64,000 nucleotides of DNA from Haliotis cracherodii (Eukaryota): positions 3,782,001 through 3,846,000 of the forward strand of contig NW_027266274.1 in NCBI RefSeq assembly GCF_022045235.1, in the 5' to 3' direction. The notes under the pieces are model-generated. The model was given only the letters and a program-made list of their open reading frames with translations, had not been told where the DNA came from and ran no database searches. Numbering within the stretch: the first letter of the stretch is position 1; each line of letters starts with the position of its first letter. Positions 20,641 through 53,442 of the stretch are shown here, in pieces. The translations under genes were made by a program, and so were the position numbers.

Positions 20641-22908
20641 TTATTTATAGGTAGCCAAGGGGCGAACAGTAGATAAATTTAGGTCCTCAATCGTACATTT
20701 AAGTTGCATTTGGCCACCAAAATGGTCGCTACATAGAGGGCTGCATGAACAAGAACACAAATATGCACAGCTTACTGTGAATACTCCAGTAGAGACTGCA
20801 ATGTGGCTAGACTCGGATCTGGTGACAACGAAGGATAGTTGTGTTATATAAATGTACCATTATTGTCTTTAATGCGACAAGCATAACTTTCTGTAAATCA
20901 TAACACACATATTTTCCAAATAATTTCATATAAAATACCAACAGAAGTCATTTCAAACAAAATGTTTTATTATTTTATTGATCATAGGTTGGATGTATCT
21001 TTTCCAGATCAAAAGCAAAAAAAATAAATATTCTGTGACATAACCTGACAGGCAGACAAACAAACATAAGTAATCAACCAATGAACCCACTGGTGTGGAA
21101 CAACATCAGCCCACTGCAGTAATCATTCCAACACAATAATGTACGACATACATGGCATAAACACAGATATAGTCACGGTCATACATCTGAAGCAAATCTT
21201 CACCACTTCTCCTGGACCACTTTTTAAGATGCACAAACTATCAAAAGTCTAAAGATTGTATTGTAAAATTGCAAGAGTAACTGGCAATGAATATTAAAGG
21301 CACTGTCCACATCAACTGTGTCCCGTGAAGATCTGGGTTAGAATTGGTCTTCAGCAACCAATGCTTTTTGTAAGAGGCGTCTAACAGGATCGGGTGGTCC
21401 CAATTGTGTAAATCGATGCTCATTAGGTAAATCACTGGATTGTCTGGTCCAGATTAGATTATTTCACGACCGCAGTCATATAGCTGGAATATTGCTGAGT
21501 GTGGCATTAAACAACAAATCACATCAACCGTAAAAAGATTTTGATAGATATGCCATTAACATTTGAGGCTGTAGAAAAGCAAATATAAAGTCTCATGCCT
21601 GTAGAAGTAACCATGTCTTACAAACCTTTAAAGCTTACCTTGACCATCGACCAGAGCTTCAGATAAGCAGCATATTTGCGTAAAATACCCCCCCCAAAAA
21701 AGAAAATATATTCAAAACCTAATTACTTTCATTAACTTGCGTACAGAAACCAATGCATTAAATGAAAAACTCAAATGTATAAAAACAGCATGCGTAAATA
21801 CTCAATGAAGCTTTTTCAGCATGTGTACAATGGAGCTAATTTCTGAAGCACAATTACTTTCTAAGTCAAGCCTTTAATTAGAACCCTTATATATATCTAA
21901 AACATTATTTTATTTATTTTAAAACCCAATAGAGTGATGAATAGATGAGTGAAGAAATAATGAGAAATGTAATAACCCAATTAAAATAAAAACCTTCAAG
22001 TAAAAACTCAACACAGCTCAAAAAGTTATCTGGAGCCCTGATAGACTTATCTTTACCAAAACATTTTCAACACAGGAACCCATTCATGTCTTAATCTAGT
22101 GACCTTGACATGCCATGAGCCACAAGTCCCTAACATTGGAACATATTCCCTAAAGTCAATAACATTCGACATGACAGTTGACACGAGATACAACAACCGG
22201 GGGGTAGAGGTCAAATTCAGGCTAAACTAATACTAGTCACATTTCACAGGAAGTGTGTGGTATGAACAAGTGTTGTCAAGTTAGGAGGAAATAAAATCAG
22301 ACAAAAATATTTTTTTACACCATTTAATATGAAACAAATAATTAGTCTTAACATGAAACTGTGTCCATGACAATGCCATGCCAGGGTTTTCACTCTGTGA
22401 ACAATAACAAAACAAGCAAAGTATGCGTTTCAAGTGAACTTGATAAAACAAATATGGTTACAAGCAATGCTGACATGAGAAACAGTATTCTGGCATATGA
22501 ATGACAACTGGAAAAAATTGCTCTAGTTTGTGCCTGAAATACTGGCCCCAAACTGAGCCCAGCACAATGTCTGTCTTTGAAGGACCAGCAATTCTATCCC
22601 ACAGGGAGAGACACGGACACTAGGCCATTAGTCCAAGACAAATGAAACTCTAGAGGGACCAGTGGTTTTATCCTAAAATCTAGTTACTCCACATTACTCA
22701 TTTGTGCAAAATGATGTGTGGACCAGTTGGATATGAACAATGGTGTCTACCCCTGTTCCACATGTTAAATAGCAAAATCTGCTCAAAAATTCATTCTCAA
22801 ATAAGTAGGAAAGTTCTATATTCTCTAATTGAGGCATACATATATAACACAACAAAATAACAAAATGTTCTTGTCATCAAATCTGAAAACCTTTAAGCTC
22901 TCCTATTA

Positions 22909-23206
22909 TCCATGGACAATCCCTGCCTCCAGGCTAGACTGTTGTACATGGACAATCCCTGCCTCCAGGCTAGACTGTTGTACATGGACAATCCCTGCCT
23001 CCAGGCTAGACTGTTGTACATGGACCATCCCTGCCTCCAGGCTAGACTGTTGTACATGGTGTTGTCCCTGCCTCCAGGCTAGACTGTTGTACATGGACAA
23101 TCCCTGCCTCCAGGCTAGACTGTTGTACATGGACAATCCCTGCCTCCAGGCTAGACTGTTGTACATGGACAATCCCTGCCTCCAGGCTAGACTGTTGTAC
23201 ATGGAC
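22909..23206. repeat. 36-bp minisatellite (~8 copies) directly after the helicase stop codon
   Basis: Unit GGACAATCCCTGCCTCCAGGCTAGACTGTTGTACAT. Confidence 0.95.
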
Positions 23207-23207
23207 A

Positions 23208-26200
23208 TCACTCCTGCACACAATGCTCAGCAGCTTTCATCATGAACTGTTCCCGCCGAAGAATATTCTGGATCTTGTCTTTCTCATCACTGCTCTTACA
23301 CAGGATGACAAAGTGGCTGTCCTTCTTCCTGGCCCGCCCCCGCATCTGTACGAGCGTGGTGACTGTGTTGGGCGGGTTCATGCAGACCACCAGCTCACAC
23401 TCGGGGATATCCACGCCTTCCTCTGCTACAGATGTGGCTACAATGATGTTATACTTCTTGCTCTTCACTCCATCAAGCACCTTCTTCTGCTGCTTCACCT
23501 TCATGCCACCATCAGCCTGACCAGATCCATGGCCAACCACCGATGTGATCTTCAGACTGTTGGCTGATGCAAATTGTGTCTGCTTCAGGAAATTGCTCAG
23601 TCTGTGTGCATGTGCTCGCTCCCGGACGAGAATCAAGGCCATTGCATTTCTGCCAGCTTTCCAGTTGATGTATTTATCATTGGTGAGAGTAGTGAGTAAC
23701 TGTGTGTACAGAGTGATATGAAGAGGGTTGTCATCAAACTCCTGCTGGACATGAGCTGAGTGAGCAGCTCTTCTCATGGCATCTTGCAGCTTTTCACACT
23801 GTATCCCCATCCCCTGAGCGTGCTGGAAGCCACTCTGTGCTGGAGTCTGGTTGAACGTCTGCAGGTCAGCTACAGCTGTGGGTATCCCAACACTGTCCAA
23901 ATCAGACAGCGCAATTAAAAGTATCTTGCAATGATTGACAAGGAAGTCCATATTCATTTTGACTTGTGGTTGCTGGGATTTGGCCTGGCAGTTCCCAAGA
24001 GCTCGGACAAACCTTTCAGTAGCAGCATTGTCCAAGTGCTCTACAAAGTCTTCCAAGTCTTCTCCCTGCATCTTCTCCACTCCAAAATGACAGTCAGTGT
24101 CAATAGTGCACAACTCCGACAGCTTCAAGTAACACTGGCAAATGTACACCAACAGTGTCTTCCGGAAAGCTCTTTCTTCATCCGAAAACGGCTCATAGTT
24201 GATCTTCAGCTTAGCACTGGACTGATACCGCTTCAGTTCTCCCACACAATCACCCTGGACGATGGCAATGCTGGCTCCCCCAAGGTTGTGGAATAACTCG
24301 TGCAGCATGCTGACCGTGCTCTCTACACTGTCGCGCCCTGCAGGGGAGGCGGTCAGACCTAGCACTTTGGGTCTGTGTTCTGGCTGGCACGGGCGGTGGT
24401 ACGCCTCCAGGAGGCGATTGAAGGGGTGATTCTTGACACAGTGATGAGCTTCATCAAATACAACCAGTGAGAAGTCTTCCCAGCGAAGCTGCTGCTTCAG
24501 TAGTAGATTGTCAGCATAGGCTACAACACAGATATACAACAGATATACTACAACACAGATATATCACAGTTAGGCTACAACACAGATATACAACAGATAG
24601 ACTACAACAAGGATATATAACACTGTTAGGCTACAACACAGATATACAACAGATAGACTACAACAAGGATATATAACACAGTTAGTCTACAACACGTTTA
24701 TATCACAGTCTACAACACAGATATATCACAGTTAGCCTACAACACAGATATATCACAGTAAGCCTACAACACAGATATATCACAATTAGCCCACAACACA
24801 GATATATATCAGTTAGCCTACAACACAGATATATGACAGTTAGCCTACAACACAGATATATCACAATTAGCCTACAACACAGATATATATCAGTTAGCCC
24901 ACAACACAGATATATCACAATTAGCCTACAACACAGATATATATCAGTTAGCCCACAACACAGATATATCACAGTTAGCCTACAACACAGATATATATCA
25001 GTTAGCCCACAACACAGATATATCACAATTAGCCTACAACACAGATATGTATCAGTTAGCCTACAACACAGATATATGACAGTTAGCCTACAACACAGAT
25101 ATATCACAGTTAGCCTACAACACAGATATATATCAGTTAGCCTACAACACAGATATATGACAGTTAGCCTATAACAAAGATATATCACAGTTAGCCTACA
25201 GCACAGATATATATCACAGTTAGCCTACAACACAGATATATCACAGTTAGCCTACAACACAGATATATCACAGTTATCCTACAGCACAGAAATATATCAC
25301 AGTTAGCCTACAACACAGATATATCACAGTTAGCCTACAACACAGATATAAATCACAGTTATCCTACAACACAGATATATCACAATTAGCCTACAACACA
25401 GATATTATCACAGTTATCCTACAACACAGATATATATCAGTTAGCCTACAACACAGATATATGACAGTTAGCCTACAACACAGATATATCACAGTTAGCC
25501 TACAACACAGATATATATCAGTAAGCCCACAACACAGATGTATCAGTTAGCCTACAACACAGATATATCAGTTAGTCTACAACACAGATATATCACAGTT
25601 AGCCTACAACACAGATATATATCACAATTAGCCTACAACACAGATATATCACAGTTAGCCTACAGCACAGATATATCACAGTTAGCATAGGTTGATAAGT
25701 GTGAAGAAATAGGGTTTTTAAAAGTTCAAAATTAACAATAGTCGACTAGTTCGAGACAAGTAAAATTCAGGAAGGACAAGTGGCATTTCCTTGTGGACTA
25801 CCACTTTACCATTAAGTAGACTGAGACTAGTCAAACTACAAAATAATTTCTAACACTCCATACATCAAAGAGTTATAGTAAAGTGTTTCCACTTAACAAG
25901 TGTGCAGCATGTACCTGCCGTGCTGACGATGACGTCATGCTTGTAGAGGGGCGTGGTGCCTTGAGGCAGTATGTTCCCACACAGTGTGGCTATTTTCAGC
26001 TCACGCTCCTGCTCCTCCCCATCACTTGTCATGCTGGAAGTAACATGGTATTCTACCATGAATTTGGGAAATACTCAATTCTGATTGGTCAGTCATAGGT
26101 ATCAAATGACAATTACCACCTCTGATTGAAACGGCTGATTTTATTGACCACAAATAGTGAAGTACTTCTTTCTCAGTCACTGTCAGCAGGCATTTTAAAT

Positions 26201-29200
26201 AATTATATGTACAACTATAGCTTATAAAATGCAGGAGCGGTCGGGTAGCCTAGTGGTTAAAGCATCCCTCGTCACCCTGAAGACCCGGGTTCGATTCCTG
26301 ACATTGGTACAATGTGTGAAGCCCGCTGTGATATTGCTCGAATATTGCTAAAAGCAGCGTAACACCATACTCACTCACTTATAAAATGCAGATGTGTGGT
26401 AACTACAACATTCGAAGTATGTGTAGCAACACATTTTGTGCAGAAAACACGATAGAAATTGAGAGAGTATCGTTCAGCTTGAAATTTGAGCTTTTCTATA
26501 GCTGACTGTGACATATTTTCTGCATCACAATGAGTGTGACGTCGTAATAGCGACACGGACTGTAGAACAAAACCTTGCAAGGCTTGAGTACTCTTCTTTA
26601 CGGCTGCCCACTTCATGCTGACTTATGTAATAACTGTGCTACACACTTTGATGCCTTTCGTATATGCAAATCCTTTTTGGTAAAATAATAATGTTGAAGA
26701 ACATTAAGTACCAATATTTGTTTAAAGCAGGGTTAGAGTGAGTGAGTAAGTTGGGTTCAATGCCGCTTTTAACAGTATTCCAGTTATATCACGGCGTGTC
26801 AGCTTAATGTGGGAGGAAAGCCCGAAGTGATGCAGGTCTTAGACGTTTACCACTTCGGCGAAACCCACGAGCACAGGTATGGTGCTGACAAACCTAGAAA
26901 CATAATCGGGGCGAACCGGGATTCGAACCCACGATCATAGGTTTCTGGCGTGCCCAAGGGACGCAACTCTGCACAGCGAATCGCGGCGCCTTAGACGACT
27001 GGGCCACCCGTGCCCCCTACAACAGGGTTAGAACTTAACACTAGCCTGCTAGCCCGGGGCTAGTACAAAGTGCTGTGGGCCAGAACAAATTTCCAAATTT
27101 CCACCTTGTTTTACCCTTACAAGGGCATATTATCCTTACCTCGGCTAGTAATGCTTTATTTTCGGTTCTAACCCTGTAAAGCTGGTATCTGTTACCTCAA
27201 ACATCAAATATTTTCTTTTCTATAGTTACATTTTTTTACATCAAGTTGAAAAGTTGGCATTTGTTATTAAAAGTTTTGTGGTAAAGAGAAACAAGACTAT
27301 ACCTTTTATGTAGCCATAGCAACCAGCAAACTAACAACTCTCAATATGAAAAGCATTTCAGTTTAGTTACCTGTCTGTGTCTGTGTCCCAAACTTTTCTG
27401 TCAACATCATTTTCAGTACATTGTAATGTTAAAATAGCTAACCTAAAGATGTTTTACTGAACTCAGGCATTTGACGAGTGGCTAACGCACAGGCTGATTT
27501 ATGCTAACAAATTCTATTGCATTGACATGCTGGTACATATGGACTTTCTAACCCTTAACATGACTTCAGCACTTCAAGCAGGTCTGTATTCTGTTTCTGG
27601 AGATAAAATCGGTAACAGAATTCTTGTGTGGCAATACTGGATTTGCCCCTCAGTTCACTGATCATGTGACAATGGGCATGCAAAAGGACAAAATAGCTAC
27701 TGTAAAGCATCATTGTCAAGTATATCATGTTGACTTCTTGATAAGGATGCGAAGTCAACGTCCTCCGATGGCCAGCAGGTTACTGACACAATGGGCATGC
27801 AAAAGGACAAAATAGCTACTGTAAAGCATCATTGTCAAGTATATCATGTTGACTTCTTGATAAGGATGCGAAGTCAACGTCCTCCGATGGCCAGCAGGTT
27901 ACTGACACAATGGGCATGCAAAAGGACAAAATAGCTACTGTAAAGCATCATTGTCAAGTATATCATGTTGACTTCTTGATAAGGATACGAAGTCAACGTC
28001 CTCCGATGGCCAGCAGGTTACTGACACAATGGGCATGCAAAAGGACAAAATAGCTACTGTAAAGCATCATTGTCAAGTATATCATGTTGACTTCTTGATA
28101 AGGATGCGAAGTCAACGTCCTCCGATGGCCAGCAGGTTACTGACACAATGGGCATGCAAAAGGACAAAATAGCTACTGTGAAGCATCATTGTCAAGTATA
28201 TCATGTTGACTTCTTGATAAGGATGCTAAGTCAACGTCCTCCGATGGCCAGCAGGTTACTGACACAATGGGCATGCAAAAGGACAAAATAGCTACTGTAA
28301 AGCATCATTGTCAAGTATATCATGTTGACTTCTTGATAAGGATGCGAAGTCAACGTCCTCCGATGGCCAGCAGGTTACTGACACAATGGGACTCAAGCAG
28401 GGTGCAGACAAACTGCACTATCTCCAGCGCATCTTCCTTCTACTACAGAATGGAGGCCATTTTGTAAGGATAGCATATCCTGTGTCACATGATAGCAACA
28501 GGAACAATAGCGGGAGATTTCACTGACCGGAATGTGGATGATAACCGTTAATACATCAATGTCTGAAGTACCTTTACAATGTATACATTAACTCTGTTGG
28601 GCTGAATTCTGCTATATTTCAAAGTGCATTATTTCAAGTGGGAAAAAAGCTCCATATGAAGCAGGTAGTAGACGTTTATCCTCAAGCTTTGGTTACACAC
28701 CAAAGACATTAATTAGGACAAATTATTGACAACAGCCAACAAATAGCTGATCCTTGTATGGCTAGGGGACACAACTATTGAGGGTATCTTACGGCATCAA
28801 CATTCTGGCAAAATATCATATAAGAAGATATAAGTGTCAGTGCATACTGTGACTTTTGTACACAGAAATATACAGAGACTACTTACCGCTTGTACTTCCG
28901 ATTCCCAAGTTCATTGGTGATGTACTTTGACTGCTGCAGCACCAACAACACCTTGTCCACCAGGAACAACACTGGGCGCCGTGGGTTCCGTTGCAGCATA
29001 CAGCTCAGCGTCATCACCGACACCAGCGTCTTCCCAGTCCCTGCAGCAGCAAACATGTCATGTTGCATCGTGACATCTGAGAGTATACAATATCTTATAG
29101 CACAATTAATACTAAAACTAAAGAATGACACAGTCTTCTCCTGATTGAAACAAACGTCGATATCACCAATAAATTCCCTCCCCATGTTTGTTAATGATCA

Positions 29201-32200
29201 GGCAAACATCTTTCAAGAAGCCTTGGTGGCACACAACGGCCTGGAGATATAACACACTGGACAGCTGATGAGGCCAGCATAGTAGTGCAGGTCTTATCTT
29301 TAACATGTTTAAATTAGCACAGTCAAATATTTGTTTCCAATGTATTTGATACAGATACTGGATAATGGGAATGAAACAGTTTTGCAGTATGAAGATTTAA
29401 AGAAAACAGCAGTGTTAGAAACATACATTTTTAGTCCATTAGTCCTTATAATTATAACATATAGCAAAACCCTTAAAAATGGCAAATTTCTATTTATCCT
29501 TATGATGCCTTAATTATTGGGCAGTTTGGCAAGGAGTACAGGACTAGTACCAATTTCTAATGCTGAAGTGTTGAAGGAGAAAACCACTGACTCACCTGTT
29601 GGCAAGAAGATGACCTTGTCGCCTTCCATGGTTTTGCAGAACAGATCCACCTGGTAGCTGCGAGGCATGGTGTTGGTCACATGATAGGCTGCTTCCTCTG
29701 CATCATCGATACTGAGCACCCTCTGTATCTGTCCCAGGTTCACCCGGGGAGCCTCCACTTCCGCTGCCTGCTGTTGATGAGCTCGACTCTGCAGGTGAGC
29801 CTGGTAGTCTTTATCTGTGTTCATCGGCCGATTACAGATGTCACAGTAAAATTTGTAATATCCACCAAAAGGGTTCTTTGGTGGCACCTTTGGTATTGCA
29901 CCTATACCAACATGGCCAATGAGCAGCTCAAAATTAGAGGATGGACAGATACTTGACTCAGCATCTGTCAGGAGAGATATGTTTCTATCTTGTCTTGGAG
30001 CTATGGAGTGGTTGTGATCAGTGGTACTGGAGCCCATAGAAACATGTGGTCCATCATTGAGAATACTGCTAGCATTTGTGTTGTAACTGATTAAACTGTC
30101 AGCCTCACCACCAGGCAGGTCATCATCCAATGGCAATGTCTTACTTCGAGAAGATTCTTCTTCATCTGAATTCAGGTTTTCAAACACATCAAGAGGAACT
30201 TTATTTCCTCTGTGTCGGACAGTGGTCTGGTTTTTTAGCGGGTTGTGAGTGCTGGGTCGCCTACTTCCACCTGATCCCTTGACATTATCTTGGAAGTCAT
30301 CAGTGTCTCCAACGTCGGTAGATGTCGGTTGAGTGATCGCTGCTGTTCTCATCCTCAGAGGCATCGCATCTGTTGTGGTAATGGTTGGGTTGACAATGGT
30401 GGATCCCCTGCCCATGACTAGTTTGGCCAATGAAGTGCTTTTGAAAATAACATTTCTTGAAGGAGTTATTTCTGTGTTAATTCTATTGTCCTTGGAAACC
30501 GTTTCCTCGGCTGCAGCAGACATTCCTGGGCTTCGTTCTCGCTCCGTGCTAAGTGTTTTGCTGGCACTATTTGTACTTGATAACTTTCTCACACCCGAAC
30601 CAGCTTCACTCACTCTTGTAGACTGTCTCCCATCAGTATCAAGATGTTCCCAGTGTCCGACTAGATCGGAACTGACATTTGATGCTGTAGTGATAGGAAC
30701 ACTCCTGGAAATTGAAGAGATTATTTCCTTCACTTCAGTATTTGGAGTTATGCCTTTGACTGCAGTGACTTCTCCTGTACGAAGAGCTTCCCAGACATCC
30801 TTGTAGCTCCCTTGCTTGGATTCCGTCTTGTCCTGACTATCTTCAACACTAGACCCTCTGCTATTTTCATCACCATAAGCCGATAGAGCCACAGCGACAT
30901 ATCGCTGCTTCTTTTCCACAGTCTGTAGATGCTTGGGACTTTTCTTATGGATTGACAACTGTTCAAATGAGTTCACTTGGCACTGGCATACCTCACACAC
31001 ATACATGTTTCGTGGGGAGTGGCCTACCGAGTTCTCTCTGCCTGCTGAGTACAGGCCCCCAGCTTCTATCCCGACCGGATCCAAGGAACCCTTGGTCAGC
31101 CCTGCCTTGCTTATATGTTTGGCAGAGGCATAATGCTGTGCAGCACTTTCTTGTCCACTGAATGACTTGAGACAAACCTTACACTGGAGTGACAGTATCC
31201 CATTCTGGTTGATCATCTTCCTCTTTTCCTCAGCCCTGGCGTGACTCCGACCTTGAAGGTGCTGGGTGGCATGCTGTGGAGATGTCAGCTCTATGTTACA
31301 AACAAAGCATCGGCCTCTTCCACCAGTAAACACATACGCTGGCTCCTCCATCGCATCACCAGGCTGGGACACTCCAGAAGAAGGGTCTCTATGTGCATCA
31401 ACTGCATCAACCAAATTCAATCTCTGTACAGCCTTTTCATGTGGTTTCCCTGCTAAGTGTTGACTAGCATGTGCCTTAGAGGTAAGTTCAATGTTACACA
31501 CATTGCAGAAGCCTCTCATTCCATCGAACTCGTAAAGCCTTCGTTCTGCAGACTCCTTTGATTCCTCATGTCTGTTTGTTGCTTGCCATCGTGCTAAAGC
31601 ATTTGTGTGATTCTTACCATTGAGATGCTGTTGTGCATGTTGAGAAGACGTTAGTTCGATGCTGCAGACGTTACACCATCCTCTGTTGCCATCAAACCGA
31701 TATGGTGTCTGAGGACTGGTAGATGGTTTGACACCAGCTGTTCTCTCACTGACATCAGGACCATTGTTGACCAAAACATCACCAGTACCTGCTGAATGCA
31801 AGCCTTTAGCTTTCGCATGCTTCTTACCACTAAGGTGTTGGTTCGCATGTTCACGAGACGTCAGTTCAATTTTGCAGATGTTACATCGTCCAGTGCTCCC
31901 ATAAAAAATATATTCCTGTTCTTCTGTTACGTTTTCTTGAGACAAAGGAGTTCTTTGCATTTGTGTATTCTCTGATGAATTGTTAGAATTATTACCATCA
32001 GTAATGTGGGGGAAATGTTGATTGACCATGTTTAGATTTTGTAGACATGAATAGCTACCCAGAATTGGAACATCTGTCAAAGTTCCTCCATGAACAGATA
32101 AACACAGACTACCTTCATTCTGATTACTTACAGTCAGTGGCAAATAGCCTGTTGGCCCAGCTGAATATGTCAGTTTGTTTTCGTTGGGAAGCATAATTTG

Positions 32201-33541
32201 AGCTAAACTTGGAGCTTTTGGAAACTGACTCACTTTTGGTTCTGTCAAAGAATTAGACTCCGGCTGGATGTTCATTGGCAGGCAGGTCTGAACGGTAGCA
32301 CCTGGAGTTGCAAGTGGGTTATTTACCAAGGTCATTTTCTGGGAAAGCTGCGGTTTCTCCTGCTCCTGAAGTGTGAAATTTGTTTTGGGCAGCTGTGACC
32401 TCTTCTTGTGTCTATCACTGTCAAAGTGTTGCTGGGCACTCTCAGGGCCGGAGAATACAACATTACACAAGTCACATTTGAGCACCTCACTGGCAGATTG
32501 TCCTAATTTCCATTGCTTCTCTGCTTTCTTATGTCGGGATCCATCAAGATGTTGCTGGGCATTTTGAGGAGATGTAAAATCCACATGACAGACATTGCAG
32601 TAACCCTCCTTTCCATCGAAAGTATAAGGAACATTGTATTCATTACCATCACCAGAACTAGTTTTCACAGTATCAGACACTGACATGTTTCCAACTAGAG
32701 TAGAACTAGTTGTCAGTAATGGTGCCATTGTTTGACTTGGTCTAGTTTCAGGCATAGAACTACTGTTGCTGTAAACTGGGACATCAGCAAACAGTCCAGT
32801 ACCTGTCTCTGAGGGGGATATTCCCAACCTTGTAGGGGCGTTACTTGGCTGTGAGATGTTTGAAACACCATACAGGGGAGAGCTACTGTTGAAAACATTG
32901 TCCTGTCCCTCCATCTCTCTCTTCTTCTTCAAGTGCTTTGCACTTGCAAGATGTTCCTGAGCATTGCCAAGACTGGTAAATGGTACATTGCAAATCTGAC
33001 ACTTCAACACATTGGTGTTGTCCTCTCCAGCCTCCATCTGTTTTTGTTTCTTCTGATGTTTGGATCCACTGAGATGTTGCCGGGCATGTTGTGGAGAGGT
33101 CAAGTCAATGTCACAGAGATGGCAATAACCTCTAGAACCATTAAAGTCATATTCCTTTCTTGCGGTTTCACTGGACATCTTGAAAGGTACTGTCTGGTTA
33201 AGCCCCTGTGTGGGACTGCTACCGACATGCTGTACCCTCCCAGAAAGGAGAGGGTTTTGAACTGGTGTTGCAGCTTGGTATGCGAAACCTAAACTTCTTC
33301 TTACAATCTCTTTGTGTCTAGGGCTGACAATGTGTTGTTGAAACTGTTCAGCTGTGTTACATTGGACATTGCATGGGTCACACCAGTATGTTCTTGTGTT
33401 TCCCTGAAACACTGAATTTTTAATCTGGTCTTCTTTTTTCCTGTGAGCCTCACTGATGAAATGCTGCTGAGCTGATAGAGCACCACTAAATTGCTTTGAA
33501 CAAATAACACAGTAAAGTGGAACCTCTTGTTGGCTGCTCAT
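23208..33541 (-). CDS. Multi-zinc-finger (13x matrin/U1/JAZ-type C2H2) RIG-I/Dicer-family DExD/H-box RNA helicase, ~1843 aa; coding exons 33541-29596, 29040-28887, 26033-25915, 24520-23208
   Basis: Exon phases join without a break (5532 nt = 1844 codons). There are 13 C-x2-C-x12-H-x5-H fingers, then Q motif PRSYQ, Walker A LPTG|TGKT (split by an intron), Ia LFLVDKVLLVLQQ, II DEAHH, III GLTASP, a helical Hel2i-like insert, IV LILVRER, V ATSVAEEGVDIPEC and VI QMRGRAR. The stop follows about 35 aa later. Confidence 0.9.
24521..25686. repeat. 25-29-bp minisatellite (~40 copies) in the last intron of the helicase gene
   Basis: Unit CTACAACACAGATATATCACAGTTAGC. It abuts the splice acceptor at 24521. 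Confidence 0.95.
26234..26380 (+). mobile_element. tRNA-derived SINE (short copy)
   Basis: A-box-like TAGCCTAGTGG, B-box GGTTCGATTCC and an (ACTC)n tail. No intact cloverleaf. Confidence 0.75.
26737..27018 (-). mobile_element. tRNA-derived SINE
   Basis: The minus strand begins GGGGGCACGGGTGGCCCAGTCGTCTAAGGCG, has B-box GGTTCGAATCCC after a long spacer, then a non-tRNA body and an (ACTC)n-like tail. Confidence 0.7.
27667..28390. repeat. 119-bp tandem repeat, 6 near-identical copies (helicase intron)
   Basis: ACAATGGG recurs every 119 bp from 27669 to 28383. Confidence 0.97.
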
Positions 33542-33724
33542 CTCTGCTCAACAGATAGCTAAATCATCTAGAAAAGATATTCAGTTTAGTACAATTCCTG
33601 TTGAAAGTGATTATCCTTTGGCTGTATAGTCCTAAGCAATATGTTGCACACAGTTGTTCGCTGCGTCGTTAATCACACCACGATCACATTTCTAATTTTA
33701 GCATCACCGGGAATACCAACTTAC

Positions 33725-33780
33725 TTTCTTTCGACGTTCGTGTGAGACAATATTCAAAGGGAGCGTTTTTGTCAGGTGAT
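33725..33780 (-). other. Putative non-coding first exon of the zinc-finger helicase gene (5' end approximate)
   Basis: Consensus donor AAA|GTAAGT (intron starts at 33724) pairs with acceptor TTTTCTAG at 33568, 26 nt before the ATG. Confidence 0.5.
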
Positions 33781-33791
33781 GATAGTCAATA

Positions 33792-33878
33792 CGTGACGTG
33801 TGTACAAGGTCTATTCCTGGAAATACGGACAACACCATGTGAAACCTGAATAGGGGATTCCCCTAGTATGACGTCATA
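33792..33878. promoter_or_regulatory. Cluster of immune transcription-factor motifs (GAS/STAT, NF-kB, CRE/ATF) upstream of the helicase gene
   Basis: TTCCTGGAA at 33814-33822, GGGGATTCCCC at 33853-33863, TGACGTCA at 33869-33876 and a CRE-like TGACGTG at 33794-33800. Confidence 0.65.
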
Positions 33879-34557
33879 TCGCGGTAAATCACAAACTGAT
33901 CACATGGCCGCATCAGAAGAGAGGCACAGGCCAAACTTTCCTCGGGTCTTGCCTCGTCAGTTTTTTTACATAACTTCGACATAAGGATTGAGAAACATGC
34001 ACGGCATATACAGATAATTCATTGCATAATACCTATCACTATTTTCACTGTTGTCCTCAAAGGACTGAGAAGGTCGAACGGGACCGAAACTCGGCTCTTG
34101 AACAATGAAACACTGCTGATGAAAATTTGTGCTATGATATGACTATATCTGCGTAAGGATGATCTGCGTCAATTTATCACACGATGTTTGTTTCCAAAAT
34201 AGTTTTAAAATACTTACAGAAATGGTTACCTCCCTTATGAAAAATATTTGGACTGGGGTCCTGTCTACGTAAACCAGTATAAATCGCGCTAAACTTGCGT
34301 CGCGTACCAACAAGGGAACCAGTTTAGAAAAAATATGTAAACAAGGGCTTTGGTTTCGAATATTCTGAATGATTCAATCATGATTACAATTTGTGAAGCT
34401 ATCAATGTATAGATAGGGGTTTTCATAGTATTGATACCAATACCAGCCTGGGTTTTTGTTTCATAAACTGGTAAAAATCAGCAGAGTTTGATCATTTTGT
34501 ATAAATGCGAAAGTTTCGCAAAATCGCTCTACGTCTGTTATTTTAGCAACCAAAAAC

Positions 34558-37500
34558 ATGGCCGCCAGTGAAAAGGTAAGAGCGGAGCATATGTGTGAAA
34601 TGCAGATATTTTGCTGGAGACACATGATATTTTGACATTTTCATTTATGTCAGCAACTTTTGGACCCAACATTTTAACGGAAATTCCTCTTTATCAGGGT
34701 AATATCATTGGGACAGTTTAGATGACAGTACATCATTAGGCCTAATATCCATAAACAAATCTGAAAATGAATGAAAAGGTAAGCTTGGTGATAGCATAGT
34801 TTATCAAACAAAATGTGTATTTACCGTTCTGTCATTCTGTAGAACTGTTGGCTATTAGTCTTGATCATCCGAACCTAATGGCTCTAGCATTCATTACATC
34901 TTGTTTATTGATTGTTGACTGTGCATGTAGAATATATGTTGCTGACTAGATGATCCACTTTTTTCAACAGGTTTTGAAACAGCTCTTAAGCAATAGAAGG
35001 ATCAGAAAAGATAAAGATGTAGAAGAGCTCTACCTTTCTGACAAGTGAGATTACTTATTTTCAAAGATACAGAATAGGATTTGCACTAAGAATGTATTTT
35101 GTATATGACCCTGTTTTTTTCTTTACTTTGTCTGTCCCTGCCCTTTATAATTACCCTTAGTATCTATTATCCAACATAAGAATTAAAAGAATCTTAAATA
35201 CCCTTATGCCTCCATTTCACTTCGACCACGAATATCCCGAATCACCCTGAACAGGAAAAGTTTTATGTTCGTAGATAATCATTTCTTGAAGTTCTTAAAT
35301 GAATCTTATTTTTTTTCCCAAACATTCGTACAGTTTGTGGGAGTTCTTCAAATCGGCAAGAAAGTTTTTGTTTGTCAAAAACTTTCGTGAAAGGGTCCCC
35401 AAATTGCAATTTTGTGGCTGTATCGTAATCCTTTCGTAATTAATTTTTATGTTCCATAACAGCTTCGTAATTCATTCTTTTGCATTCTTGGCTATTCTTA
35501 GCTATTCATGGCTCCAAAAATGTCTTGTCCTCAACCAAAAAACATCCCAAAACAGCCATGAATGTCCTGAGTCAACTACAAATCATGCAAGAATTAAGTA
35601 AGAACAACGTGCGGCATATTTGTAACTTAGTCGTAGGTGATTCTTACAATTCGTGCATGATCCGTACATGAATCATGTAATTCATATATGTTTCTTAACC
35701 CATTCCTGGCATTCTTAATATTTTTCAACCCGATTAGCCACGAAAGTTGGCATTATTAGCTGATTCATCACGAATTTCAAAAGTTTCCGATTCAGGGTTA
35801 TTCGGGATGTTTGTTTCATAGTGAAAGGGGGGCATGACCCAATATACAACTCGGCTTATGCATCACTGTATTATACTGTCTGCAACCTAGCATGTTTGTG
35901 CATGGCTGATAATTAACAGTGGTAAAATATGAATAATAATGTAATTAAATTAAACAAAGGTAAGACTTCCACGCATATCCCCCCCTAAAAAATATATATG
36001 ATTAAAAGGAATGAGTGACAATGCATACATATATTACTTTTGGAGAGGGATACAGGCTTAAGTCTTTACAAAACTATATCTTTATTTATGAATGTGAAAG
36101 TAATTTCAATCTGAAATATTTATATATTGTGTTGCAAATCTCTGCCTCTCTGGCCTGATGGCCCTGCATAGTGACACCTAAATCTGTGAGGACATCCTTA
36201 AACATGATATAACTGAACTTCCATTTGTGCAATTGGCAAAACAAACTTGTAAGAAGGGACTCAGATGACATTGGACTGTCTCTGTGGTCTAGTGTAGAGC
36301 GTCCTTTAGTCCATACATGATATTGTTTTATGGTGTATTGTAAGATACCAAGTGATTTCCTGCATGTTAACGATGACCTTATCCTAGGAACTGTGTATAT
36401 ACCACCAGATCAAAGTAGATTTCATTCACCGGAAATATTTACAACACTAGAAAATGATATCATTCGTATGTCAAACTGCTCACAGTACATGTGTATTAAT
36501 GGTGATATGAATTGTCGTACTAAAAATCTACCGGATTTTATCATTTTGGACGAATATTTATGTGACAATGATATTATTGACGAGGAATTTTTGTTTTCAA
36601 ATGTACAACTTCTAGTTGACAACGATGTAAAGTTAGATAGAATATCAATGGATACTGAAACAAACTGTAACGGGTATAATTTCCTGGATTTATGTAAAAG
36701 TAACGGATTGTATATTGTAAATGGGAGATTAGGCAAAGACAAGGGTATTGGTAAACTGACCTGCAGAAATGCCAGTGTTGTCGATTATTGTATTGTATCA
36801 GCAGAAACATTCCCATTATTAATAGATTTTGAGGTGCAGGAGTTTGACCCGATCTCGTCCGATGTACACTGCTTATCGTTAACGTTAGATTGTACAGCAC
36901 AACAACTGTCTCCAGTTATAGATGATGACAAAGATGTACATGTACATAAAGTTGTAAAAAGATGGATTCCTGATAAAATTGAAGCATTTTTACGTAATAT
37001 CGATAATGTTGCCATTACCCATCTGTGTACAGAATTAGATGCATGTAAAGACCAAATAGAGCCAAATGACATTAAACAAATTGTAAATAAACTCTCTCAG
37101 ACGCTGGTTACTGCGGCTGAAACTACTCTAGGTGCTGTAAAAAATTCAAGACACTCTGTACATAAGCACAAGCATAAACCCTGGTTTGATGAAAAATGTA
37201 AATCATCACGTAGATTTTACCACAAGCGTAAATGTATATATGGAAGGACTAAAGACAGTAATAGCAAAGCTATGTACATTTCAGCTAGTAGAGCTTATAG
37301 TAAAACCGTAAAGAAGGCATTTAAGACATATCAAAACAAATGTGTCCAACAACTGAGGGAATGTAAGGATAGTAACCCTAAGAATATTTGGGAAATTTTA
37401 AAATCATTTGAACCAAAGAAAACAGCAGAAAAAATTAGTATGGACAAATTGTTTGAATTTTTTAAAGATCTTAATCAAAGTTCTGATGATAATGACAATG

Positions 37501-40500
37501 TTTTTGCCAATAACATAAATTATGATAATCATGATGATATCTTAGATTGTAGGATTACAAAAGAAGAAATTATGTCAGCGATCCGTGCATTGAAGAACAA
37601 TAAGGCTTGTGGGTTGGATGGTATTTACAATGAGTACATTAAAAGCTCTATTCATGTTATGATGCCGGTTTACGTAAGGCTTTTTAACCTCGTTTTTGAC
37701 ACTGGAGTTTCACCTGAAGCTTGGCTTGTTGGCAAAATAAAACCAATCTACAAAAACAAAGGAAACCAAGCTGACCCAGACAATTACAGAGGCATTCTAT
37801 CCTGAGCTGTTTAGGTAAATTGTTCACTACACTATTGAATAATCGTTTACAAGCTTACTCAGTTCAGACTAATCTAATAAGCGAAGCGCAAGCAGGATTT
37901 AGAAAAAAATACTTTTTACAATTGACAATATGTTTATTCTTAAAGCTCTCATTGATGTCTATAGAAATCTTAATAAGAAGTTGTATTGTGTTTTCGTCGA
38001 TTTTAGCAAAGCTTTTGATACAGTATGGAGGTGTGGTCTGTGGACAAAAAATGATAAAGTCTAATATCAAAGGAAAATGTTTTAATGTCATATATAATAT
38101 GTATCAAAATATGAAATCTTGTGTTTCACATAATAACAAGGTGTCAGGTTTCTTCCCATGTCAAATTGGTGTAAGACAAGTTGAAAATGTGTCACCTTTC
38201 CTGTTTGCTTTGTACCTTAATGACCTTGAACAATGATTTTGAAGGACTGCATAATGTAATAACCTTTTAATAGATTCACTTGAACTGTTAAAAAACCTTT
38301 TTCTCATTTTGTATGCCGATGATACTGTTTTAATGGCCGAAAGCCTAGAAGATTTAAGAAAGTGCCTCACTATATTTGAAGAATATTTCACTATCTGGAA
38401 ACTTAAAGTCAATCTTGACAAAACGAAAGTTGTTATTTTTGCCAAGCGCTCCACAAATAGTCTTCAGTTTTATGTCAAATGGCTCGATTTTTCATGTTGT
38501 TAAAGAATATGTTTACCTTGGTATTTTATTTACAAACACTGGTAGATTTTGTAAGGCCCTAAAAAGACTGACAGATCAGGCATCTAGAGCAATGTACGCT
38601 GTATTTCGTAAAATTAGAATATTAGAAATTCCTATTGACTGTCAACTGAAATTATTTGATCAACTTGTTCAGCCAGTATTGTTATATGGATCTGAGGAGT
38701 GGGGTTTTGAAATTGCTATTGTAATTGAACGTGTACATCTTAAATTTTGTAAATATATTCTCAAGTTAAAACAGTCAACACCTGATTACATGGTATATGG
38801 TGAACTAGGTAGGTATCCTCTCAGCATTTTCATCAAGATAAGAATGATTTCATATTGGTGCAAGCTAACATCATCACCAACTAGCCTTTCTAGTATAGTA
38901 TATAAACTTATGTTTCAAATGTCCTTTGCAAATCCAGATTACCATTTCCCACTATTAAAAGAAGTAAAATGCATTCTTCAAAATATAGGCTTTAATTACA
39001 TTTGGTTGTCTCAAACCTTTACTAGTGCCGCATGGTTGAAACAAAATGTGAAACATGTTCTCATTGATAATTTTCTGCAAAGATGGTGAGAATCAAAGGA
39101 AAATTCATCTAAAGGTTACTATTATAACATGTTTAAAGAGTTACCATCCCTAGAACCTTATTTCCTAGAACTACCAATCACCTTACGCATCTCTCTTGCA
39201 CGTTTTAGAACAGCAAATCATAGATTACTCATTGAAACAGGAAGATGGTATAATATTGTAAGAGAGGAAAGAAAATGTACATTGTGTAAAAATTTAATAT
39301 GTGATGAAATGCACTTTTTATTAGAATGTCCAAAACTCTCAGAAATTAGAAACAAGTTTTTGCCTCAATTCTACTGTATGTATCCTTCTGCCATAAATTT
39401 CTCTCATTTGATGTCCATTACTTATAAGCCAATTCTATTAAAACTGGCAAGTTATATAAGATCATGTATGGAAATGTTCCACAGACATGTTTTCTCCTAT
39501 TGTATCTAATTCCTGTATCCAATTACATCTCTGTATCACTGCCGTGATTTACGAGAATAAACATCATTCATTCATTCATAAGTACCGTTAATGCATTCAC
39601 TGTATTGTCTGGTATCTCAAGTAGCTAAAGACAGCTGAACACAGACACTGTAACATGTTGTCTTTCTTCATTCAGCGCACAGGGGGGGGGGGGGGAGGGT
39701 GTATTGACTTGGTGCTTACTACAAATAACTAAATATTTGAAAGTTTTCTCAAGTTTTAGTTACTTGTGAATACATACCTCTATGATAATGAAGGATAAAA
39801 TTTTGAACTTATTATCAATGACAATGTAGTTGTTTTGTTTTATTTGCGAACATCAGTTAGCGCTTGTCTGCAGATTTTGTTTGTTTGTTTAACGCCACAC
39901 TCAGCAATATTCCAGCTATATGACTGCCGTCTGTAAATAATCAAGCCTGGACCCGACAATCCAGTGATTGACATGAGCATCGATCCACGCAATTAGGATA
40001 CAATGACATGCATCAACCAAGTCAGCGAGTCTGACCAACCAATCCCATTAGTTGCCTCTTACGACAAGTTTAGTCGCCTTTTATGGTAAGCAAGGGTTTC
40101 TGAAGACCTTTTCTACCCCGGATCTTCACATCTGCAGAAATTATGACGTGTAAACATGAGCAGATATAGGGTCCTTGCAGACTTTGCTGACGCAGCTGTA
40201 ACACAAATAATTGATCAGTTGCAAGGAATATATAACTTACTATATAGTACACAAAGATAGGAACGTCATTATCTAATATAAAACATACATTAATGTTTTT
40301 GCAAGGAATTTATCTTCCAATACTGAACAAGAAATGAATATACTCAAACCTAAGGTGTTTTCTCCTTTAATTGTGCTAATGGTAAAATCTTTGTTACAAA
40401 TGTCATCTTGATGACAAACTTATATGATTCCATAAAATTGAGTGGACCTTTCATGATATTCAATGGTATCATTGGCATGCATTAGTACTGACTGATAAGC

Positions 40501-46810: not shown

Positions 46811-49800
46811 TCACACTTCAAGGGCTTTCAATATTGCATCCCTCTCCTTCAAAGCTTTCTGTGCTCCATCTTTTTCCTTTTTTGTTGGTGTTTTCTTCTT
46901 CTGTTTAGCTGCCTGAATCTTTCGGTAGGCTTCCATCACCTAGACAAATGCCATCTGAGATTTTTAGTCAAGTCTCTACGTAATATCCAACCAATACCCT
47001 CCCAGAAAATACTACGAGATCAACTCTGATAACTTAGTGTCAAGTACACACGAACACATTCAGTGAGAGTGAATGTAGTTATATGCTCAAGTCACCAATA
47101 TTCCAGCTACATAAAAGTGCAGTCTGTGACTTAAGCCACTTGTCCGAAGCTCATAAAATACAATTTTTTTTAAATTATCCTGCATTGCTCCTTAGACATC
47201 ATAATGTAGGATAAGTATACGAATATATAAAATATTTAGATATTACTAACATGGTAACACTAAAAGTTTGGGCACTCAGATGTTTTGGCACAGACTGAAA
47301 GTGGCTTATAAAAAATAGGGTCAGGGCCTGGCAAACCAGGAGCCGAAGACTCACTATCCGTCAGGTCATACAGGGTGAGTGCAGAAGGTTGATACCTAGG
47401 CAGCACATGGCCAGGGCATGTTTTTTGATTAAAACATGATTCATGGGCATGACCTTGACTTTTCTCGCGATATGTGGCACACTTCACTTGACTCACAAGA
47501 ACTTAATGACGTCAGACCAGGTTCTGAAGCCTGATCATGTTATACTAATCATTGATTGATATTTCCTTGGAATGACATTTGATTATTTGAACTTTTCTTT
47601 TCACAATAGGAATGTCAGTTGAAAGTAACATGGATGACACAGTTATATTTGTTTTAAGGATTCAAACAGCTGCATCCCAAGGGACTCGCGCTGAATAATA
47701 TTTGCCTCCATTCTCAATAATCTCCAATAATCTTTTGTGTATAGAAAATAATATATTGTTTCTGCAGAAACGTCGTTCCACTAATATATATGTATCATTA
47801 CATGTTGTAAGGAAGATCACAGATGAATGATGTTTTCAGTGATGGTCACTTGTCCAAAGACGATCCACACTCTGAATCTGTAGTGGCCAGCTGACACGTT
47901 ATCTCAGCTCTCAATGTAAGTTATGTCAGCTCTCAATGTAAGTTATCTCAGCTCTCAATGTAAGTTATCTCAGCTCTCAATGTAAGTTATGTCGGCTCTC
48001 AATGTAAGTTATCTCAGCTCTCAATGTAAGTTATGTCAGCTCTCAATGTAACTTATGTCGGCTCTCAATGTAAGTTATCTCGGCCCTCAACACTAAGGGA
48101 CCAAGGAGGGGAAAGACTTCTACTGACCTCTGCATCAGCTGCTGACAGCTTCTTTCTCATCTCCTGTCTTGCCATCTCTTCCTTGGCAAGCTTGTACAGT
48201 GTTTTGGTGATAGTTACATTTCGCTGGCTCAATGCCTTCAGTTCCTGTTGCTTGCGACGCAGCTCCGCAAGTATCTCATCATCTGGGTTGTCTTCCACCT
48301 TGTCATCTATCTCTATTAAACCTGGAAACGAGACATCCGTACTGGCAAGCCCTTTGTACATCATCACAAACAAACACATAACTATGATGATGACACAACA
48401 CACCATCAGCGCACCCAGACACTTAAGACAGAAGGCTTTAACTGGACTCAAAAATAACGTAATTTCACCCCAACCCCGTCAATATCTGAGGTTTTGTTGT
48501 AGATAAATATTTAAAGTAGATAACATGACTGTATGATCTAATTCATTGTCATCATACTGAATAGGCTTGAATCATTGCTTACGCTATCTCAATCACTTGG
48601 GTGAATGTGTTCTTGCCCAGCATTCAACAATGTTCCTGCGTTATCATTGCCGTCTTTATAAGCAGTTGGAAATATTAAATATGATCCGAAGTCGACCCAC
48701 CTTGTTCCTCTAATTCTCGTTTAATCCTCCTCTCTAAGTGGGCTGGGTTGACAATGTTCAGCTGTTTCGCCAGCATGCGTGGGGAGATGGCGGGCGCCTC
48801 CTCAGCCGACTCTAAACAGAGGAGTTGCAAACGATCACTGTTTAATTTCTAGAGTCACAGCAGTTGATTCACATCAAAGAAGTGACCGAATTCAGCTGAC
48901 AACAACAGCAACAGAGCAGCACTGACCTTTGCCCCCTGCAATGTCCGCCAGGGAGTCATCTATAGGGGTCATGATGTTCTCCTCAATCAGCGCAGCCACC
49001 AGGCGCTGGGTCAGGTGTCCGAACGGGGACTCATCCAGGTTACTGGTCAACAACCACAAGCACATGTTACAACATATCAAAATCTCAACAATCACAAGCA
49101 TGTTACAACGTATCAAAATCTCAACAACCACAAGCACATGTTACAACGTATCAAATTCATTTGGATACATTTACAATCATTCCTTTAAATAAACTGCAGC
49201 TTATTGTGACATATAAATCGCCAGGTATATTTACCACAGGACATAAGGACCCATACAAATTTGAAACTGCGGGCCGAACACAAGATCTACCTGCCTACCG
49301 GCACGTGCACATTTCAAAGCTGCTTACTTTGCTTCTGCCTTCTTGAGCAATGTGGCTGTTTCAGTGGGACTCATGACAGAGTTGTTGTGATTGGAGTTGG
49401 AGTTTCGCTTCTTGTCATTGATCTTAGCACCTGCAACACAAACCCACTGACAGTAACAGGGGAAATATTCAACAACACACACAAGAACAGAGACACCACA
49501 GAGTGACTTCATCTTCTTAATGTAGTCAGTTAACGTACATCTCTAACTATGGTAACCTTCCTGTAACCTAACAATAAGCCAATTATGCGAGCATTATACA
49601 CCTTCCAAACTGCAAGAATGATGTTCAAGATGGGAGTCCTAGTGTCATAGGATGAGTCTTGTCCAGCTTTCTTTCTATAACACTGAAGTGATTCCCGGAC
49701 AGGATAGGATAACTCCCTAAGCATATCAGAGCAGGCTAAACATCCTCCTGGGACCCCCTCCCCGACCCATCCCCAAGCTGCTGTGATATAGCTACACCCT

Positions 49801-52180: not shown

Positions 52181-53159
52181 TATATTCTATTGAAACACTG
52201 AAATATGAAAATATTATTGGTGTACAATAACTTTACATACTAAAATATTTTCTGAAGCACCATTTAACCTTAAATGATCCCTATGGCACACCTGGTACAG
52301 GTAACAATGAAAATACATCAACATTACAGGTTAGAATTTGTCTTCTACAACCCATGTTTGTCAGAAGGGGCGACTAACAGGATTGGTGGTCAGGCTCACT
52401 GACTTAGTTGATGCATTTCATCGTACCCCAATTGCATGGATTGATCATCATGATGTCAATCACTGGATGATGAGAATATCCATCTGTGAATGAGTAACCT
52501 ATTATCATAGAGACAAAGGAGTACTAGCACAAATAGTACAAATTACAAAATCTAGTCCTAGGCTGTAGACCACAGTGCATTGCCCCTCTATTAGAGTAAC
52601 ATCTAGTATCTGAAATGAACATATCGTACAGAAAAAACAGTTGACTCTCTTCCATTTTCAGATACTGCAGTAATCTAGACTTGCCAAACATTATAGACTT
52701 GCATGGGCTGTATTTGATATATATTTGTATCAGGGTCTGTAAGACAGACTACCCCTCTATTAATAGTAATGAGATTACACTCTAATATTTCATGATCGTC
52801 CACTTAATTGTGCATTACAAACGACATGTTACTTTGTTTCATAAGCATATGCTGGCCATAACCATTCACCACATATACTGCATATATGGTATGCTTATAT
52901 CATATAAGCCTAACTCATGTCTTCTCTTAATGATGACAGTCACCATACTCAGAGACCATATCGGTATATGGTCTCTGCCATACTATTGTGCGTCCAAGCT
53001 AAAGCATAAAAACTGTTTTAATAACGAACACTTTATCGTTCCGCATGTGTCTACTGTCTAGGGAAAGTATTTAAGAAAAACAATGGTGTAATTCCATTTG
53101 CAACACGATATATAAATGTTTATTTGTGATCAACTCCATTGGGCTTGCCTACATCACTT

Positions 53160-53442
53160 ACCGGAGTTTCACTGTTCACTTTACAGTTAGATCTACTCCA
53201 TTGCGTTAAAGTGTATATGTATCATGCAAAATTAACAATTTGTTTATGAATGGAAATATATCTACAGCGTCGATTTTCACTTTCACGAGAAATAATAACA
53301 GGAGCCATTCTCATGTACGGGTTCATATCACGAACAAAGCAGCAGGTGAACTGTCGGCCATTTCCTGCATACAACCAATGACAGTGAAGCTTCTTTAGTT
53401 ATTCCACCAATCAGCGTTGTGGACGCAAAGAAAACATCGACA
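53160..53442. promoter_or_regulatory. Probable bidirectional promoter for TADA3 and PIGV
   Basis: The genes are head-to-head. A candidate TADA3 5'UTR donor (CG|GTAAGT) lies at ~53160 on the minus strand, and two CCAAT boxes (~53376, ~53406) lie before the PIGV ATG. Confidence 0.55.

Follow-up and report, generated by a model that had tools for sequence, protein, structure and literature searches.

A likely flexible, moderately inducible antiviral promoter of a zinc-finger helicase gene in the abalone Haliotis cracherodii

Introduction

In the abalone Haliotis cracherodii, STAT-, NF-kB- and CREB-type motifs stand close together upstream of a gene for a zinc-finger helicase, and the locus raises the question of whether these motifs form a real group of sites, which gene they would serve and by what kind of mechanism. 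A sequence-only reading of this DNA had taken them for an enhanceosome-like cluster, and the helicase for an infection-inducible, ISG-like gene. In vertebrates, promoter clusters of STAT and NF-kB sites are well known, so that the cluster alone would be ordinary; cytokine-inducible promoters pairing a GAS with a kB site include those of IRF1 and ICAM1. With regard to the corresponding factors in molluscs, a Rel-type gene is described as present in abalone (PMC11103948) and a single STAT is described in Aplysia (PMC9334734). Here, we report an analysis of a stretch of 64,000 nucleotides (hereafter, the window), together with contigs of close relatives, loci of distant homologues, the protein family and published expression data.

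Results

A rare, single-copy motif cluster upstream of the helicase gene

All the motifs named by the sequence-only reading, including the GAS, the kB palindrome, the CRE, the TGACGTG, the GAAA and the kB-like site at 33709, were found where it had placed them (Table 1), and its claim that the cluster lies just upstream of the zinc-finger helicase holds as well, the distance to the helicase start codon being 270-340 bp. The names GAS, CRE, YY1 and X-box are those that we assign to these sequences, and the TGACGTG at 33794 is presumably XBP1/CREB3-like. The lone GAAA, a string that occurs 763 times in the window when both strands are counted, is probably incidental. No canonical IRF site lies between the CRE and the kB site, and neither an ISRE nor a AANNGAAA match was found in 33700-33900; in the 1.5 kb upstream of the abalone helicase gene no canonical ISRE was found, while several homologues do have one.

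Table 1. Positions of the features discussed, in window coordinates.
Feature	Position	Strand	Remarks
Helicase coding exon 4	23208-24520	-	Runs from the DEAH box to motif VI; stop codon after a further 39 residues
Helicase coding exon 3	25915-26033	-	
Helicase coding exon 2	28887-29040	-	Walker A GTGKT completed across the splice
Helicase coding exon 1	29596-33541	-	Start codon, 13 C-x2-C-x12-H-x5-H fingers, start of the helicase
CpG-rich stretch between both genes	33600-34600		o/e 0.79-1.31 per 200 bp
11 extra bases in B, C and D completing a perfect GAS, ATTTCCAGGAAAT	33682-33683		Missing from the window and from X7
kB-like GGGAATACC, weak	33709-33717	+	
Donor-like GTAAGT	33719-33724	-	G at 33724; splicing there not seen in contigs
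CRE-like TGACGTG	33794-33800	+	No change listed in organism B
GAS-type (STAT) motif, strict, TTCCTGGAA	33814-33822	n/a	Broken in organisms B and C
Lone GAAA	33841-33844	+	Fits neither AANNGAAA nor the ISRE pattern
Palindromic kB site TAGGGGATTCCCCTA	33851-33865		7-bp arms, 1 central base; core GGGGATTCCCC at 33853-33863
CRE palindrome, perfect, TATGACGTCATA	33867-33878		1 bp from the kB palindrome
Dispersed-repeat piece, short	34280-34327		Depth 2313; ~400 bp from the cluster
LRRC72-like first coding exon	34558-34575	+	X16 and X17 show it spliced to the exon at 34971

Each motif type is weak evidence by itself. Specifically, a strict GAS occurs once in the window, where 0.75 are expected, and a perfect CRE five times, where 0.71 are expected (the other four are away from this promoter, split between a coding exon and non-promoter DNA); the kB consensus has 11 matches, at six places, against 3.21, and perfect palindromes with arms of at least 6 number 48. 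The combination of GAS, kB and CRE, by contrast with these single motifs, occurs once in the whole window at spans of 70-300 bp, and never in 6.4 Mb of simulated order-3 Markov DNA at spans of up to 300 bp. With a loose GAS, 8e-5 triples are expected per 64-kb window if simulated densities are used and 1.7e-3 if observed ones are, and very loose patterns for the motifs give 13 triples per 6.4 Mb, or about 0.13 per window; the motif classes were picked post hoc, after inspection of the sequence, so these figures are somewhat flattering.

The cluster is also single copy. In run X10 (organism B) it sits on one 4811-nt contig with an even depth of 30.6, compared to 2313 at the repeat piece, it is unique within the window, and a repeat search of 33400-34700 returned nothing beyond short two-copy matches; a dispersed-repeat origin, which the earlier reading had offered as a way to refute it, is thus contradicted. 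RNA folding of 33640-33900 showed no excess (z -0.25). A bacterial promoter scan, which has no relevance to an abalone promoter, stayed at chance level. In conclusion, the three-motif cluster is far beyond chance and is a real group of motifs.

The helicase gene (minus strand) and an LRRC72-like gene (plus strand), whose start codon is ~680 bp from the cluster, form a head-to-head pair with ~1 kb between them, an arrangement that the sequence-only reading had not mentioned. The CpG o/e ratio is 0.39 window-wide and 0-0.34 in the flanks of 33600-34600, and this CpG-rich stretch is likely an unmethylated promoter. A YY1-like ACATGGCCGC is found both at 33902-33911 and at the LRRC72 start (34556-34565), in one orientation, an X-box-like GTTATTTTAGCAAC lies ahead of that start (34537-34550), and a broken LINE-like element with a weak RVT_1 match occupies part of an LRRC72 intron (36321-39509). 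Elsewhere in the window we noted a DDE_3 transposase fragment (13480-14121), a PIG-V mannosyltransferase exon within 53835-55169 and, head-to-head with PIG-V, a minus-strand multi-exon gene (48100-53400) that looks TADA3-like and whose promoter holds none of four immune motifs.

The helicase gene and its putative 5' leader

The four-exon model of the helicase gene yields a protein of 1843 aa, identical at 1843 of 1843 residues to P0001, an 'uncharacterized protein' of Haliotis cracherodii; the protein of H. asinina shows 83% identity over the helicase exon. It combines 13 zf-met/JAZ-type fingers with a Dicer/RIG-I-type DEAH helicase, the SF2 core motifs of which (GTGKT, DEAH, TAS and QMRGRAR) are intact, and a Pfam scan detected no CARD, RLR CTD or RNase III in it. 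The closest solved structures are an ancestral Dicer helicase (9mw6, E 1.9e-28) and chains of LGP2 and RIG-I (E ~1e-22). On this architecture, the protein is predicted to bind double-stranded RNA through its JAZ-type fingers and to act on it by a Dicer/RIG-I-type ATPase; it would neither signal through a CARD nor cleave as an RNase III. Three tandem arrays accompany the gene: a ~30-bp repeat fills the end of the last intron (24521-25690), each unit ending in a similar TGTTGTAG and the final unit supplying the splice acceptor; a ~119-bp repeat lies in an intron at 27670-28370; and a ~40-bp repeat follows right after the stop codon (22900-23200).

A short non-coding first exon with its donor at 33724 had also been proposed. 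The donor-like GTAAGT exists; nevertheless, no splice joint at 33724 is listed in the contigs of four runs. The putative intron is retained in contigs of X7 (33200-33860) and X16 (33200-34306), and pieces of X17 read unspliced across both intron ends. This does not refute the exon, since contigs lose rare forms and may hold DNA; as a donor-like GTAAGT is also found in the bivalve-like locus L020 and in the coral-like loci described below, such an exon is plausible as the ancestral layout. The X7 contig passes through the GAS up to 33860, so that, on the guess that X7 is RNA, transcription may take in part of the cluster. Cover ends at 33860 in X7 and at 33809 in X17, and these ends are no guide to the transcription start site. 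On the minus strand, 33567-33877 holds five upstream ATGs, one of them with a 44-codon frame at 33838, which would matter if the helicase leader is long and unspliced.

The GAS position shifts among close relatives

Contigs from four of 21 listed runs, assigned to organisms A to D, were compared with the window, and 40 of 71 differences are considered here; the rows for organism B run in order to 34067, so its list seems complete up to there, while C and D are partly covered. Run X7 (organism A) matches the window. Organism B differs from it at 29 of 526 non-coding positions (5.5%), with 11 substitutions in the 106 bp of 33762-33867.

In organisms B and C the GAS at 33814 is broken by an A>C change at 33821, accompanied by T>C in the flank at 33824. 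Both organisms, and D as well, carry instead the 11 extra bases that complete a perfect GAS ~130 bp nearer the helicase gene; the contigs of D cover this second site (33682) and not 33814. A, B and C therefore hold one strict GAS each, at either of two sites ~130 bp apart, which we read as site turnover, a random 11-nt indel creating or removing a strict GAS with a probability of 1.3e-4. To judge from these sequences, the pattern looks like turnover of a STAT site under selection keeping STAT input, although it is a single event. Protein polarity did not root the indel, derived changes being present on both sides; a deletion in A would be a little simpler than an insertion in the relatives, given that the 11 bases do not duplicate their neighbours in tandem and have an AT repeat at their borders.

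As to the other sites, among the listed differences the kB palindrome shows no change in organism B, and in the CRE the outermost base alone (33867) differs in B and C. With organism B diverging by 5.5%, finding no change in the 37 bp of the four non-GAS cores gives P=0.11, which is not significant and says little about conservation of the kB and CRE sites.

Immune-type motifs upstream of distant homologues

Among 54 homologous loci, 11 were scanned upstream and eight were tested against shuffles, L039 (unclear 5' end) and L005 and L019 (little or no upstream DNA) having been dropped beforehand; in L002 and L006 the upstream region was counted from the first protein match and not from a start codon. 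Immune motifs exceeded the shuffles (P<0.05) in six of the eight regions. Since 45 of 228 arbitrary 1.5-kb tiles also hold at least two immune motifs, the coral-like pair L002 and L006 is the sole strong case. These two related regions (81% column identity) share TTCCGGGAA and a second GAS 17 bp away, in which two changes both keep TTC-N3-GAA, and the tandem GAS lies ~160 bp ahead of a shared GTAAGT.

At the helicase end of the bivalve-like L020, we found an ISRE-like run and a TGACG adjoining GGGATTTTCC, with a GTAAGT 30 bp further on, and no GAS there. Two ISRE-like sites were seen in L008 and a single immune motif in each of L031 and L003, and nothing above chance was detected upstream of L007 and L040. 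A perfect CRE was absent from all eight tested regions, as was the three-way set of GAS, kB and CRE, and of the 54 loci L039 alone has a perfect CRE-kB pair, which lies within its matched region on the minus strand. Judged by motif content, immune-type input recurs among the homologues, while the exact motif set does not.

A few further observations concern these loci. In L020 (1800-5100) LRRC72 and the helicase are head-to-head, as in abalone, and P0012 and P0156 carry the Batillaria locus tags 17301 and 17304, three apart, and their contigs are equally long. In L008 (160-190) an ISRE-like GAAAACGAAAGT is directly followed by GGGTTTTCCC, kB-like and outside the kB pattern, which gives an IRF-then-kB layout. 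Upstream of the homologue in L040, GAS-like sites with one mismatch each, namely TTCCCGAAA and its reverse complement, lie at 8785-8795 and 9765-9777.

A separate helicase family and its names

The same architecture, with 2-13 fingers, is found in many molluscs, Lingula, Lineus, hemichordates and Orbicella, and RNase III, PAZ and the dimerisation domain are absent from the 15 family proteins scanned. In a tree of helicase cores obtained by a quick search (39 of 42 rows, three being skipped for missing motifs), 21 family rows are separated from RLRs and Dicers by a branch with support 100, and the abalone, Aplysia and oyster-like rows fall into one mollusc group with support 99. The oyster-like P0013, with seven fingers and no RNase III, is sister to Saccostrea. 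In addition, a Z-alpha domain (residues 261-318) precedes the fingers of P0044, whose sister is the Orbicella protein.

Protein searches for family members returned no named Pacific oyster protein among the matches. In the open-access literature, neither the family nor the promoter was found described as such, DDX58 and DICER being the sole names found, and a search by gene ID returned nothing for six IDs; in the accessible text of PMC8998645 'zinc finger' gives no hits, nor does 'zinc' in that of PMC11114477. The family is likely little recognised and mislabelled.

Expression of the likely orthologues

In Aplysia, the orthologue LOC101845957 (P0024), labelled DDX58 in PMC8195618, belongs with a membership of 0.78 to a module dominated by interferon, NF-kB and RLR genes, in which it is co-expressed with IRF, STAT and ZNFX1, and it does not rise significantly with age in the data given there. 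The same study names the oyster gene CGI_10020752 as the top BLAST hit of the Aplysia member (E 2e-84).

CGI_10020752 is called DICER in PMC7064767, and no other of the 1,587 genes in Table S5A of that paper bears a 'dicer' label. The qPCR primers given for 'DICER' in Table S2 of that paper translate to TSVAEE and SEKMEE, the latter being present in one of 288 stored proteins, namely P0013, 46 residues past TSVAEE. Because the primer peptides match P0013, we take the oyster 'DICER' marker as a member of the zinc-finger helicase family; CGI_10020752 thus appears to be a zinc-finger helicase without RNase III and a likely orthologue of the abalone gene.

Compared to seawater, poly(I:C) raised CGI_10020752 by a log2FC of 0.81 at 0.5 d and 1.66 at 1 d (PMC7064767), and of 1.55 at 10 days (cited via PMC8195618). 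OsHV-1 raised it in unprimed oysters (log2FC +1.09 and +1.90), with RPKM going from ~57 to 206, that is, a moderate rise over a clear basal level, while it fell slightly in seawater-injected controls (PMC7064767). The response is modest beside the top genes of the oyster table, which reach a log2FC of 4-6, and the two genes with adjacent IDs show no significant change in the rows listed (PMC7064767).

The proposal that the abalone helicase is infection-inducible and ISG-like is therefore supported indirectly and in part. In its favour are the ~2-4-fold rise of the oyster orthologue with poly(I:C) and OsHV-1, the interferon-like module of the Aplysia orthologue and a STAT motif seemingly kept through turnover; GAS/ISRE/kB sites lie near the gene start beyond chance, as in ISG-type promoters. 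Against a strong reading of it stand the moderate induction and the clear basal level.

Discussion

The reading that we consider probable is that the cluster serves as the helicase gene's flexible, infection-responsive proximal promoter, with additive sites giving a few-fold boost of a putative dsRNA-binding ATPase. Factors of the CREB/ATF type at the CRE would provide the output at rest or under stress, the palindromic kB site would let Rel/NF-kB boost it early on, and the GAS, through binding of an activated STAT dimer, would add a second, sustained boost, the net effect being that in infection the helicase would go up a few-fold over a clear basal level. A single strong GAS seems to be enough wherever it lies near the start, so that the sites would likely act additively, in a billboard-like manner.

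The region is shared with the neighbouring LRRC72-like gene. A general bidirectional promoter, in which the CRE drives basal or LRRC72-directed output and the GAS and kB sites do little for the helicase, would fit the head-to-head start codon ~680 bp from the cluster and the same layout in L020, the frequency of perfect CREs in the window, the substantial basal expression of the oyster gene and the YY1-like site at 33902, which is oriented as at the LRRC72 start. We hold it to be unlikely, because it leaves unexplained the GAS turnover on the helicase side, the induction of the orthologue and the GAS/ISRE/kB sites that homologous promoters have next to their helicase end; moreover, a label search of the 1,587 genes in Lafont Table S5A (PMC7064767) returned no LRRC72. 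A promoter induced chiefly through general stress, cytokines or bacteria (cAMP, the unfolded-protein response, IL-17/TNF-type input), rather than through an antiviral pathway, is quite unlikely: the response of the likely orthologue to dsRNA and virus, with a slight dip in seawater controls, argues against it, as does a protein architecture pointing to dsRNA, even though the kB and CRE sites are the most perfect ones, the upstream 1.5 kb lacks the canonical ISRE that several homologues have, and abalones are reported to be without MAVS (PMC11103948).

The two remaining explanations concern the arrangement of the sites itself. A rigid enhanceosome of the IFN-beta type, with STAT, NF-kB and ATF/CREB acting cooperatively at fixed spacing, could draw on the CRE and kB palindromes lying 1 bp apart and nearly unchanged in organism B, and on the TGACG that adjoins the kB site in L020 too. 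It is nonetheless highly improbable, given that relatives have their GAS ~130 bp away, that B has 11 substitutions in 33762-33867, that there is no IRF array and that the CRE-kB offset is 9 bp in L020 versus 13-14 bp; the enhanceosome-like description of the earlier reading is not supported, with no canonical IRF site between CRE and kB, a GAS whose position varies in close relatives and no triple in any of eight distant regions. Chance matches, a dispersed repeat or a 5'-leader RNA hairpin are scarcely credible as the source of the cluster: the many perfect palindromes of the window and a repeat 400 bp away lend them some colour, while the simulation, the single-copy depth and the folding result largely refute them.

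In the IFN-beta enhanceosome, an IRF array lies between the bZIP and kB sites. The abalone cluster is likewise compact, with a bZIP site beside a kB site (the CRE is 1 bp from the kB); it differs in having no IRF array, in having a GAS, of which the enhanceosome has none, and in a spacing that varies among close relatives. With the vertebrate GAS-kB promoters it shares a GAS and a kB site within ~30 bp of each other near the gene start, which makes joint STAT/NF-kB input likely; unlike them, it belongs to an invertebrate, has an adjacent perfect CRE, is shared with a head-to-head gene, and its binding of the factors is putative. The IFN-beta enhanceosome is highly structured, whereas billboard enhancers, such as eve stripe 2, undergo binding-site turnover (PMC2430619). 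The abalone case resembles the latter in that a site lost in one place is present nearby, and departs from them as a promoter-proximal immune site, a single event and one of putative function.

The protein, too, can be set beside known systems. RIG-I-like receptors (RIG-I, MDA5, LGP2) and the nematode DRH proteins have a related helicase core, and the abalone gene is, like theirs, likely dsRNA-induced; unlike the receptors, the abalone protein has no CARD or CTD, ends 39 residues past motif VI and falls on a separate branch. Dicer gives the best solved-structure match, and its name is used by databases and oyster papers, but the abalone family lacks RNase III, PAZ and the dimerisation domain and has a zinc-finger array in their place. 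ZNFX1, a co-member of the Aplysia module, is also an antiviral zinc-finger helicase; it is, however, an SF1 helicase with NF-X1 fingers, whereas the abalone protein is an SF2 DEAH helicase with JAZ-type fingers.

Altogether, these data indicate that the cluster is likely a flexible, moderately inducible antiviral promoter. The natural pair of GAS alleles, one upstream and one 130 bp nearer the gene, offers a direct test of the DNA elements of a molluscan STAT. If the oyster 'Dicer' is the zinc-finger helicase, the evidence for RNAi induction in the priming table weakens. The CARD-less and CTD-less family of dsRNA helicases would be a candidate sensor or effector in abalones, animals reported without MAVS. 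More tentatively, and as a possibility that we take seriously without regarding it as established, the family may be an overlooked third branch of the Dicer/RIG-I-type ATPases, shared by animals as far apart as corals, molluscs and hemichordates, in which arrays of JAZ fingers (with a Z-alpha domain in one lineage) read dsRNA: it would be an ancient antiviral gene induced by STAT, NF-kB and IRF, whose promoter swaps sites, as caught here among abalones, and the 'Dicer' used as an RNAi marker in oyster would be the same gene.
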